The position numbers were made by a program, and so were the translations under genes. 2,676 nucleotides of DNA, taken from NCBI RefSeq assembly GCF_003334355.1, contig NZ_QOWP01000072.1; one strand, written 5' to 3'. The notes beneath the pieces are model-generated. The model did not search any database. It was not told where the DNA came from and was given only the letters and a program-made list of their open reading frames with translations. Positions 1 through 2,676 of the stretch are shown here, piece after piece (position 1 is the stretch's first letter; the number at the start of each line of letters is the position of its first letter). The DNA comes from Escherichia coli. GTDB taxonomy: Bacteria > Pseudomonadota > Gammaproteobacteria > Enterobacterales > Enterobacteriaceae.

Positions 1-394
1 TTTCTTCCGCCTCCCGGATCCGGAACAGTTTTTCTGCTTCCGTATCCTTCACCCAGGCTGTGCCGTTCCACTTCTGAAACTCCCCTTCCGGCGATAACCA
101 GGTAACATTTTTCGGTAACGGACCGAGTTCAGAAATAAATAACGCGTCGCCGGAAGCCACGTCATAAACCGTTTTACCCCGATGATCTTCAACGAGATGC
201 CACGATGACTCATCACTGTTGAAAACAGCCACGAAGCCAGCCGGAATATCTGGCGGTGCAATATCGGTACTGTTTGCTGGCAGACCTGTATGAGGCGGAA
301 TATATGCATCACCTTCACCAATAAATTCATTAGTTCCGGCCAGCAGATTATAAATTGTTATGGTCCGTGGTTGTTCACTCATTCTGAATGCCAT
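1..394 (-). CDS. tfa: Tail fibre assembly protein / fibre chaperone (Tfa family); 3'-partial (first 131 codons, 394..2, plus one base of the next codon; C-terminal part outside window)
   Basis: ATG at 394..392 on the minus strand. Hand translation gives [131 protein letters not shown] with no stop down to position 2. From memory this is near-identical to the N-terminal domain of lambda Tfa and E. coli prophage Tfa paralogues. Sits directly 3' of stf with a 1-nt overlap. The track's 49..330 minus ORF is a different frame of the same DNA. Confidence 0.93.
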
Positions 395-2676
395 TATGCA
401 AGCCTCACAATATAGTTAAATGCGATGTTTTTGACGGTGTTTTCCGCGTTACCAGCAGCGTTAACGGTGATGGTGTGTCCATGTGAGCCAATCGCAACGG
501 AGTGCGTATGAGCACCAATACCGACAGTATGTGCGTGTGCACCTGCGCTTGCAGCAGTACCCGATACAGAGTGCGTATGAGCGCCTGCAGAAGAAGTGTT
601 AACACTGTATTTAGAATAATCAGGTGATCCACTTCCCGGAGCACCACTGGAACCACCTGAAACAAATGTCATCGAATGGGTATGTGCACCGGCTGAAGCA
701 GCCGTACCGCTAACACTATGGGTATGTGCACCAGTGTTATTCGTGGATTTAGTGCCGTAATCAAACGATGATGTGGTTTTCGTCCCCAAATCCGTACTGG
801 ATGCGCTGGCGCTGTGGGTGTGCGATTTAATGCCGTCCTGTTCCTGAGACAATACGGCACGACCACTGGCGGGCTTGCCCTTAATCGTCCAGCCACGCAT
901 ATCAGGAATAACGCCTGACGGATAAGCCACTGCAAGTTTCGGGTATGCAGATTTGTCAAAAGTCTGCCCCTGCATCAGGGCATAGCCAGACGGAACGGTA
1001 TCTGATGGCCACGGGATTGGTGCGCCGACTGGGTAGCTTTCTGGTGGAAGATTTTTCGAGGTATAAACTTCTGCCCAGTCATCCTCAAAACCATAACCGT
1101 CTCTTGAAGAACGGTAGAACAGACCACCATTTCTGTAATGCGCCTTCATCTGCAGGGTCCGGCAACTTCCGACTCCGGTATAGAAGTTAACCAGAATATA
1201 GCTGTCGCCAGAGCGAGTGACATTGTAAGCGCCTGATTCGGCATTCCATGGAACGCCACCATCCGCATCGGCATATGTATCCGTTGCCCTTCTGGCAAAA
1301 GCAGCCACATGCGCGGCGGTTAAAGTAATATCTTTGGAACCATCAAACTCAACACCAGAAACCCGTCTTGGCGTTTGCAGCTTTGTTGCTGTTAATGCAT
1401 TACCGTTCAGACTTGCGGACAGTTTGGTTCCAATAACCAGTTCGCCGGTTGCGTTATCAATAGCAAACGGTCTTAATGTATTCCAGCCACCATAAACATC
1501 ACCTTGATTGGTAAGCAGCAGGTAAGTTTTAGCGCCATCATTACGCCATAATGCACCATACTCTCCACCTATCATTCGAATCTGATTACCACCACGCGCT
1601 ACAATTTCGTCTGTGGCAAAAAGTTTTTTGCACGACAAGTTATCGTTAACGATTAACGAATGAGACTCATAAAAACCACGCCCACTCTTAAAATCAAGGA
1701 TAACGTCCGCCGCGATACATTCAGTCGCTGGATTTGTTGCCCCAAACTTATAGGTCGTATCATTAACAACGAGATCAGCACCAGGTGCGGATATTGACAG
1801 GCCATCTTCGATAAACGCAAAAACAGGGAAAGCAGCGCCATCAACATAGAACACAGAGCGCAAATCATCGCCCTTATTACTCATCATTATTGAGTGGATG
1901 GCTCGTTCATTGTTTTGATATTGCCAGAACATTCCATAAGCATAACGCCCCCTGTCAGTCCAGCCACCAGGCATAACAAATCCATTAAACTCGCAGTTAT
2001 TCATCGGATCGCCTGCGGTTCGCGTTGCCGTGGTGATAATGACCCTTGATGCCAGTTCGCTTACTGAGCCAGCAGAACGCATAACAACAACAGGGTAATA
2101 TTTTCCAGATGTTGCACCTGCAGGAGCGTTAACCCGCACATAACGCATACCACGCTTATCAGCAAAGTCTGTTTTACTGACCGCGTTAATGTTGTTCAGG
2201 AAGCGTCCCTTATCGGGTATATCAGCGCCGTTCTGGTCTTTCTGCAGACGTTTCTCTGCATTGTCATAGGCTGATTTTACTGCCTTTGGCGTTGCCGCCA
2301 GCGTTTCAGACGTACTGTTGGTCGCACTGCTGAGCTGTACTATCCCCTTTTTCGTCGTGCTCGCATCCTCAAGCGCCACGGCGGATGCAATATCCTCTGC
2401 CCGTTTTGCTGCTGTCTCGGCGCGCGTTGCCGCGGATTCCGCCGTACTTTTGCTCTGAGCTGCCGCTGCCGCACTGCCAGCAGCCTCTGTCGCCTTCGTG
2501 GATGCCGTCGTGGCGCTGCCCTTCGCTGCTGACGCCTGTCTGGTCGCCTCATCTTTTGAAGCAGACGCAGATGATGCCGATGACGCTGCCGAACTGGCGG
2601 ACGATGCGGCTGCCGTTTTTGAGGATTCTGCACGGGTTTCCGACGCTTTCGCGTTCGTTTCGGATGTCTTCGCTGC
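394..2676 (-). CDS. stf: Side tail fibre protein, lambdoid Stf family; 5'-partial (N-terminus beyond window end 2676); 760 sense codons in window plus stop TAA at 396..394
   Basis: Hand translation of the minus strand from 2676 down is continuously open in one frame to TAA at 396..394. The track's 661-aa ORF (394..2379) is this frame cut at an internal GTG; upstream in frame reads [46 protein letters not shown]... with no stop or start codon. Contains the conserved tail-fibre motif [30 protein letters not shown], a collar-like motif ([39 protein letters not shown]) and a C-terminal HxH array ending ...[11 protein letters not shown]. Followed immediately by tfa, the canonical stf-tfa order. 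Family call is from recalled similarity to lambda/Rac-type Stf, not a search. Confidence 0.93.
403..407 (-). promoter_or_regulatory. Probable Shine-Dalgarno element for tfa (TGAGG) inside the last codons of stf
   Basis: Minus strand upstream of the tfa ATG reads TTGTGAGGCTTGCATAATG: GAGG at 406..403 lies 8 nt upstream of ATG (394..392). The stf stop TAA (396..394) shares its last A with the tfa ATG (TAATG). Confidence 0.5.
472..825 (-). repeat. Protein-level repeat array within stf: seven His-X-His motifs (SHTHS, AHTHS x4, AHAHT, SHGHT) in Gly/Ser/Ala-rich context; predicted metal-binding fibre-tip (needle) region
   Basis: Direct translation of the last 143 codons of stf: [10 protein letters not shown]...[27 protein letters not shown]...[66 protein letters not shown]. 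Visible on the + strand as recurring gtgcgtatgagc / atgggtatgtgc motifs. This is a sub-region of the stf CDS, not a separate gene. Confidence 0.75.
826..1041 (-). other. Collar-like segment of Stf ([63 protein letters not shown]), immediately N-terminal to the HxH array
   Basis: Direct translation. The pattern (aromatic/Ala-rich stretch followed by IPDMRG-W-KG) resembles the 'phage tail collar' motif recalled from T4-type and lambdoid fibre proteins. The domain call is from pattern memory only. Confidence 0.4.
2263..2352 (-). other. Conserved tail-fibre motif ([30 protein letters not shown]) shared among tail fibres of otherwise unrelated phages (P2 H, Mu S, lambda Stf, T4 gp34/37 class)
   Basis: Direct translation. 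From memory the motif closely resembles the conserved segment described in comparisons of P2, Mu, lambda and T-even fibre genes. Position is within stf, just C-terminal of the Ala/Ser-rich segment. Confidence 0.55.
2380..2676 (-). repeat. Ala/Ser/Thr-rich low-complexity segment of Stf (includes the [12 protein letters not shown] motif and a [15 protein letters not shown] tract); presumed extended fibre shaft/linker
   Basis: Hand translation of the same frame as stf: [97 protein letters not shown]. The DNA is GC-rich and dominated by GCN/TCN/ACN codons. Sub-region of the stf CDS. Confidence 0.7.

Follow-up and report, generated by a model that had tools for sequence, protein, structure and literature searches.

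The needle at the tip of phage T4 gp37 contains seven coordinated iron atoms along its length (Islam 2019; PMC6957217). Seven irons are also given for gp37 in PMC11705849, where HxH motifs are reported for lambda as well. A structural role, critical to folding, is ascribed to the ions of the T4 needle, and exchange of H929 or H931 for alanine abolishes plaque formation (PMC6957217). Receptor contacts of gp37 are made by residues of the tip loop, with LPS and OmpC as receptors (PMC6957217). The HxH iron site is octahedral and is formed by six histidines from three chains, an arrangement described for gp37, R-pyocin fibres and the spikes of P2 and phi92 (Buth 2018; PMC6116203). T4 gp37 and the Stf of Ur-lambda have been placed in one receptor-binding family, defined by a stretch of about 215 residues together with an adjoining chaperone, and this gp37-like family spans temperate and lytic enterobacterial phages (Magaziner & Salmond 2022; PMC9659904). 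The chaperones, the Tfa proteins, combine a fibre-specific N-terminal domain with a conserved C-terminal one; T4 gp38 is absent from the virion, and the chaperones of Ur-lambda and Mu are reported to stay in the particle (PMC9608196). According to the part of PMC9659904 that cites Montag 1989, lambda Tfa can replace gp38 in the folding of gp37. That lambdoid Stf is homologous to gp37, that the needle holds seven irons and that gp38 and Tfa are linked as chaperones has been on record since 1989-2010, and the family was re-described in 2022.

Here we analyse a 2676-base stretch of Escherichia coli DNA (the window). Positions 397-1044 of this window very probably encode a receptor-binding module of the T4 gp37 type, including a metal-stapled needle, at the C-terminus of the Stf of a lambdoid prophage.

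Genomic Setting and Domain Organization of Stf

The window is 100% identical to positions 557600-560275 of the E. coli PSS-12 chromosome (NZ_AP027697.1), where it belongs to a lambda-like tail operon beside ydfJ and ydfK, genes of the Qin locus. The annotated order in PSS-12 runs from the tape measure gene to J, Ail/Lom, stf, tfaQ and pinQ, and stf thus occupies the place of a side tail fibre gene, between lom, which follows J, and tfa (NZ_AP027697.1 annotation). In the window, stf occupies 394..2676 of the minus strand, on which all features described below are located. It comprises the C-terminal 760 codons (2676..397) and the stop codon (396-394); the reading frame is open at the window edge and the N-terminal 356 codons lie outside. 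Residue numbers refer to this 760-residue fragment. Its translation is 100% identical to the PSS-12 protein WP_338388996.1, an intact open reading frame of 1116 aa whose RefSeq name is "prophage tail fiber N-terminal domain-containing protein" and whose flanking tail genes carry no pseudogene or interruption flags. PHROG 295 (tail fiber) matches stf with E=6e-198. The adjacent gene had been predicted to be tfa. Indeed, the first 131 codons of tfa (1..394) follow directly, with an ATG at 394-392 that shares one base with the stf stop codon (TAATG), before the gene runs off the window at base 1. Searches against NCBIfam gave no match for either Stf or Tfa. The remaining six-frame open reading frames are short antisense or out-of-frame artefacts.

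The shaft of Stf is built from modules known from several other phages. A Phage_fiber_2 repeat at residues 106-146 (2239..2361; Pfam PF03406, E=9e-21) is common to the S fibre of Mu, and residues 90-172 match PDB 5YVQ_A. Residues 307-406 (1459..1758) form a trimerisation module of the T4 gp34 type (Pfam PF21446, E=2e-27), and residues 350-421 match PDB 4UXE/5NXF. An upstream fibre module at residues 456-551 (1024..1311) is related to the fibre S/S' of phage Mu (PDB 8JU3, domain E=1.5e-20). The C-terminal part was divided by transferring the domain limits given for gp37 (Islam 2019; PMC6957217). Here, the first part of the Collar, T4 domain D10, covers residues 546-617 (826..1041), corresponding to T4 gp37 811-881; it has 85% amino acid identity to T4 and contains a match to Pfam Collar PF07484 at residues 551-598 (E=7.5e-11). 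It is followed by an ascending needle arm at residues 618-667 (676..825; T4 882-931; 74% identity), a tip or head subdomain of 26 aa at residues 668-693 (598..675; T4 932-959) and a descending needle arm at residues 694-743 (448..597; T4 960-1009; 68% identity). The second part of the Collar takes up the last 17 residues, 744-760 (397..447; T4 1010-1026), which are 94% identical to T4 and 100% identical to lambda Stf. As in the tip of T4 gp37, the Collar domain is thus split by the insertion of the needle.

The HxH Motifs and Their Register with T4 gp37

The Stf fragment contains exactly seven HxH motifs, and all of them fall within its last 142 residues. Three lie on the ascending arm, at residues 619/621 (window 814-822), 651/653 (718-726) and 665/667 (676-684). 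The other four are found on the descending arm, at residues 700/702 (571-579), 714/716 (529-537), 723/725 (502-510) and 732/734 (475-483). The original prediction had placed seven such motifs at 472-825, in the last 143 residues and in a Gly/Ser/Ala-rich context. All motifs do lie inside these limits, at window 475-822, with the first one 142 residues from the C-terminus, and S, A, T and G predominate in the last 143 residues (S26, A22, T20, G18, H14), a context best called Gly/Ser/Ala(/Thr)-rich. The motifs account for 14 of the 18 histidines of the fragment. Seven motifs were never reached in 20,000 shuffles of the whole fragment (mean 0.40, maximum 4), and once when the His-rich tail was shuffled by itself 20,000 times (mean 1.26). 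Chance or His-richness alone is thereby ruled out as the source of the motif count.

Residues 545-760 match PDB 2XGF (T4 gp37 785-1026; chain 26-242) with E=8.7e-89 in phmmer. In the MAFFT alignment, 153 of 215 residues (71%) are identical to the T4 gp37 tip, and identity to lambda Stf is 78%. This direct homology supports the earlier suggestion that the fibre tip is built like that of T4 gp37, and the seven metal sites given there for gp37 agree with the seven irons reported (PMC6957217). The seven HxH motifs correspond one-to-one to T4 883/885, 915/917, 929/931, 966/968, 980/982, 989/991 and 998/1000. Motif spacings are 32/14/35/14/9/9 in Stf and 32/14/37/14/9/9 in T4, and differ only at the tip. 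Stf and the gp37 tip (D10 collar and D11 needle in 2XGF) thus have in common a 216-residue module, the register of the HxH motifs, an implied collar-stem-tip-stem-collar topology and, directly behind it, a chaperone gene of the gp38/Tfa type. Unlike in T4, however, the module sits on the shaft of a siphovirus side tail fibre instead of a distal half-fibre.

Among the described systems, Ur-lambda Stf (orf401/orf314) with its Tfa has the same J-lom-stf-tfa order and a stop/start junction of the TAATG type, with 78% identity in the C-terminal module and 94% in Tfa. Lambda Stf differs in having eight HxH motifs, the additional one being located on the descending arm and accompanied by a duplicated FDYGTK on the ascending arm, and in a longer, unrelated tip. 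Furthermore, alignment to lambda DNA covers only 39% of the window (megablast, 90% identity), and the Stf shaft is therefore a mosaic. The family defined on T4 and lambda (PMC9659904) fits without substantive difference, having the same gp37-like C-terminus of about 215 residues and an adjoining chaperone. The R1/R2 pyocin fibre shaft, P2 gpV and the phi92 spike likewise bind iron octahedrally through six histidines, supplied by the HxH motifs of three chains, but they have one site on an unrelated fold where Stf has seven colinear motifs. No sequence homology of Stf to the R1/R2 pyocin fibre, P2 gpV or the phi92 spike was detected.

Conservation of the Histidines and Paired Length Changes

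Conservation was assessed in a set of 97 relatives that represent clusters at 90% identity. Every one of the 14 motif histidines is kept in 95-100% of these representatives, while the residues between and beside them vary. DNA identity to T4 gene 37 is only 61%, and 100 of the 153 identical residues are encoded by other codons in the two genes, as are 10 of the 14 histidines. This low DNA identity and the synonymous turnover of the His codons indicate that the histidines have been held through a long divergence, and point to purifying selection on His itself.

The length of the two arms varies in a coordinated manner. Three ascending and four descending HxH motifs with a single FDYGTK unit are found in 79 representatives. 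Where a fifth descending motif is present (+9 aa), a second FDYGTK is found on the ascending arm (+10 aa), in all six such representatives. This fits with arms that lengthen together, as pairing in a hairpin needle would demand.

A Hypervariable Tip Between Two Protein Repeats

The tip, residues 668-693, has 19% amino acid identity to T4 and 16% to lambda, in contrast to 68-94% in the flanks. Across residues 668-696 the query residue occurs in only 10-30% of the 97 representatives. Motifs 3 and 4 are 35 to 56 residues apart in relatives with seven motifs, and the query, at 35 residues, is in the shortest class. This hypervariable tip is presumably the loop that contacts the receptor. Since it is dissimilar to that of T4 in sequence and two residues shorter, the receptor specificity of this Stf probably differs from that of T4.

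Exchange of the tip can be seen by comparison with phage PhiR34_1, which is 98% identical to the window in DNA over 1-546 and 711-2676. Between these stretches, PhiR34_1 carries an unrelated segment of 213 bases, compared to 164 in the window; a more sensitive search narrows the divergent core to window 581-706. The breakpoints lie inside the two copies of a 17-residue repeat that brackets the tip. Copy A (residues 649-665, 682..732) includes motifs 2-3 on the ascending arm, and copy B (residues 698-714, 535..585) includes motifs 4-5 on the descending arm. As protein the copies are identical, whereas the corresponding flanks of T4 are only about half identical to each other. At the DNA level, identity between the copies is 63%, with 6 of 19 third positions in common (19 codons, the repeat plus one flanking codon on each side). 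The repeat is therefore no recent duplication, and a recent internal DNA duplication is excluded as its origin. Tétart and Krisch reportedly proposed a "His-box" recombination model for T-even adhesins, and the pattern of tip exchange in PhiR34_1 matches this model. A more speculative reading, which we consider unlikely, is that such a minimal tip binds a receptor other than LPS or OmpC, to which T4 and lambda are directed, and that the flanks have been kept identical as protein but divergent in DNA specifically so that tips can be exchanged between phages while deletion of the tip within the gene is blocked.

The Adjoining Tfa Chaperone

The full-length Tfa (191 aa) shares 94% of its residues with lambda Tfa, and PHROG 105 (tail fiber assembly) matches the gene product with E=1.5e-98. 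Its residues 12-131 align to T4 gp38 with 35% identity over 121 residues (E=7e-17), and the C-terminal residues 127-191 match Mu TfaU (5YVQ_B, E=4.7e-8). The protein thus has two domains, an N-terminal one matched to its fibre and a conserved helical domain at the C-terminus. Folding of T4 gp37 additionally needs gp57A. The lambdoid prophage lacks gp57A, and the assembly route of the two fibres is therefore not identical. The homology to lambda Tfa and gp38, together with the literature (PMC9659904, PMC6957217), supports the proposed role of Tfa as fibre chaperone, and there is good reason to expect that the folding of this Stf would depend on its own Tfa.

A Predicted Metal-Stapled Needle and Its Alternatives

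From the homology to gp37 we infer the trimeric geometry of the Stf tip as well as the identity and number of its metal ions. Three chains would build the collar domain. Each chain would run outward along the ascending strand with HxH 1-3, pass through the variable tip and return along the descending strand with HxH 4-7, such that the three chains together would form a needle of six strands. On each of seven levels, six imidazoles, contributed by two histidines from each of three chains, would octahedrally hold one buried metal ion on the threefold axis. In T4 this ion is Fe(II), and in Stf such ions may likewise keep the Gly/Ser/Ala/Thr-rich strands in register. Because T4 has seven motifs and seven irons, with one motif corresponding to one site, seven metal sites per trimer are predicted for Stf. 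The tip of 26 residues that separates motif 3 from motif 4 would set receptor specificity, and recombination within the conserved flanks, which contain the histidines, could swap it between phages. The C-terminal end would be the starting point of folding and trimerisation, aided by the adjoining Tfa.

Structure prediction gave low scores and no usable model. An AlphaFold2 monomer of the 216-residue module, modelled as a template-free single chain with a 40-sequence alignment, reached a pLDDT of 54 and a pTM of 0.21; its Foldseek comparison with 2xgf_A (TM 0.27, rmsd 23 Å) is a sequence-driven match. A linker-joined trimer, in which three copies of the 216 residues were connected by 30-residue Gly/Ser linkers and modelled with an alignment of 9 rows, had a pLDDT of 36. 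Template-free prediction of a single chain is ill suited to a trimer that is interdigitated and depends on metal, and these scores are neutral toward the needle model.

It is highly improbable that the motifs are a mere conserved repeat without a role in metal binding, or that stf is a silent remnant in a defective prophage. The generic phage tail fibre repeat PF03335 (Phage_fiber) does match six of the HxH motifs, albeit weakly (E 0.04-5.6). However, the histidines stay constant while the residues between and next to them vary, and their codons have turned over synonymously relative to a T4 homologue with 61% nucleotide identity. As to a remnant, the Qin locus, where this prophage is located, is the site of a defective prophage in K-12. 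The present prophage may be defective as well, in which case its stf would go unexpressed. Against this stand the intact reading frame of 1116 aa, the unflagged tail genes on either side and the near-identical genes that are present in plaque-forming lambdoid phages.

A different question is which ion occupies the needle and what it is for. The fold and the axial His sites could be the same while Zn, Ni or Co, or a mixture set by their supply, takes the place of iron in vivo. The sequence contains nothing that specifies the metal, and the HxH site of T4 gp12 holds Zn in crystals, possibly as a result of the refolding conditions (PMC6116203). Iron was nevertheless found in the gp37 needle, to which the module is 71% identical, and in all the other HxH fibres and spikes listed in that study that had been purified in native form, and we regard a metal other than iron as quite improbable. 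Next to no credence is given to a "Ferrojan horse", in which the iron of the fibre would itself act in recognising the host or in delivering iron to it, for instance as a mimic of siderophore-iron bound by a receptor in the outer membrane. This idea is discussed for HxH fibres in a section of PMC11705849 that cites Bonnain 2016. In T4, however, the needle ions are structural and critical for folding, and the contacts to LPS and OmpC are made by residues of the tip loop (PMC6957217). A needle with seven iron-type sites that act as structural staples therefore stays our preferred reading.

Distribution and Use

The Stf described here is an ordinary, widespread member of an already described family. 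For its annotation, the gain consists of the collar, the predicted seven-site metal-stapled needle and the putative 26-residue receptor-binding cassette, and the mapped limits of this cassette (window ~547-710) are of use for engineering the host range of lambdoid particles. Of 5426 complete E. coli genomes, 1278 have a match that spans 80% or more of the window. The search with the tip module found 1716 proteins with E<=0.001, and relatives of the module occur in 644 phage records.

A repeat-bracketed tip, replaced in phage PhiR34_1

The tip of the Stf fibre, a hypervariable segment of 26 residues between HxH motifs 3 and 4, is bracketed by two copies of a 17-residue repeat on the minus strand, one in the descending arm (window 535-585) and one in the ascending arm (window 682-732). 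The copies are perfect at the protein level. Across a 19-codon window around each copy, the DNA is only 63% identical and just 6 of the 19 third codon positions are common to both. In T4, the corresponding two segments match each other at only about half of their positions. Comparison of the window with phage PhiR34_1 revealed that the tip cassette has been replaced (window 547-710 versus 747-959 of the phage locus), while the rest of the phage gene is 98% identical. The breakpoints of this exchange fall within both repeat copies and, consequently, HxH motifs 3 and 4 move along with the tip.

Members of the family do not always have seven HxH motifs. In the family alignment of the 216-residue C-terminal module, seven motifs were found in 82 of 96 representatives, eight in 6/96 and four to six in the remaining 8/96. 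Lambda Stf carries eight, and the fibre of Salmonella phage SI7 only five. In the same alignment, wherever the descending arm has an extra motif, the FDYGTK unit of the ascending arm is duplicated.

Several database proteins (P0006, P0075, P0098 and others) join the module to a terminase, DUF1441 or C40 peptidase domain, but such fusions are probably chimeras of assembly or gene calling and not real architectures.

Shaft, chaperone junction and neighbouring genes

Upstream of the tip, the shaft is a mosaic (window 1024-2676, minus strand). It combines a stretch of low complexity rich in Ala and Ser (residues 1-100), a Phage_fiber_2 repeat that also occurs in Mu S, a trimerisation module of the T4 gp34 type and a module resembling Mu S/S'. 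Even lambda can be aligned to only 39% of the window. Strain VG888-46E9 (NZ_CP128581.1) has this same stf gene, but with an IS1B element interrupting it.

At the other end of the gene, the stf stop overlaps the tfa start by one base (TAATG, window 392-396), suggesting from the sequence that translation of fibre and chaperone may be coupled. Likewise, the lambda stf reading frame stops at the base where tfa starts (coordinate 3241 of the lambda locus, L003). In the E. coli PSS-12 prophage locus (L001), the site-specific recombinase gene pinQ lies about 100 bp past tfaQ (11131-11721), outside the window, but the locus contains just a single tfa and a single fibre C-terminus. Judged from this gene content, it seems to lack any Pin-invertible host-range segment or to have it only in reduced form.
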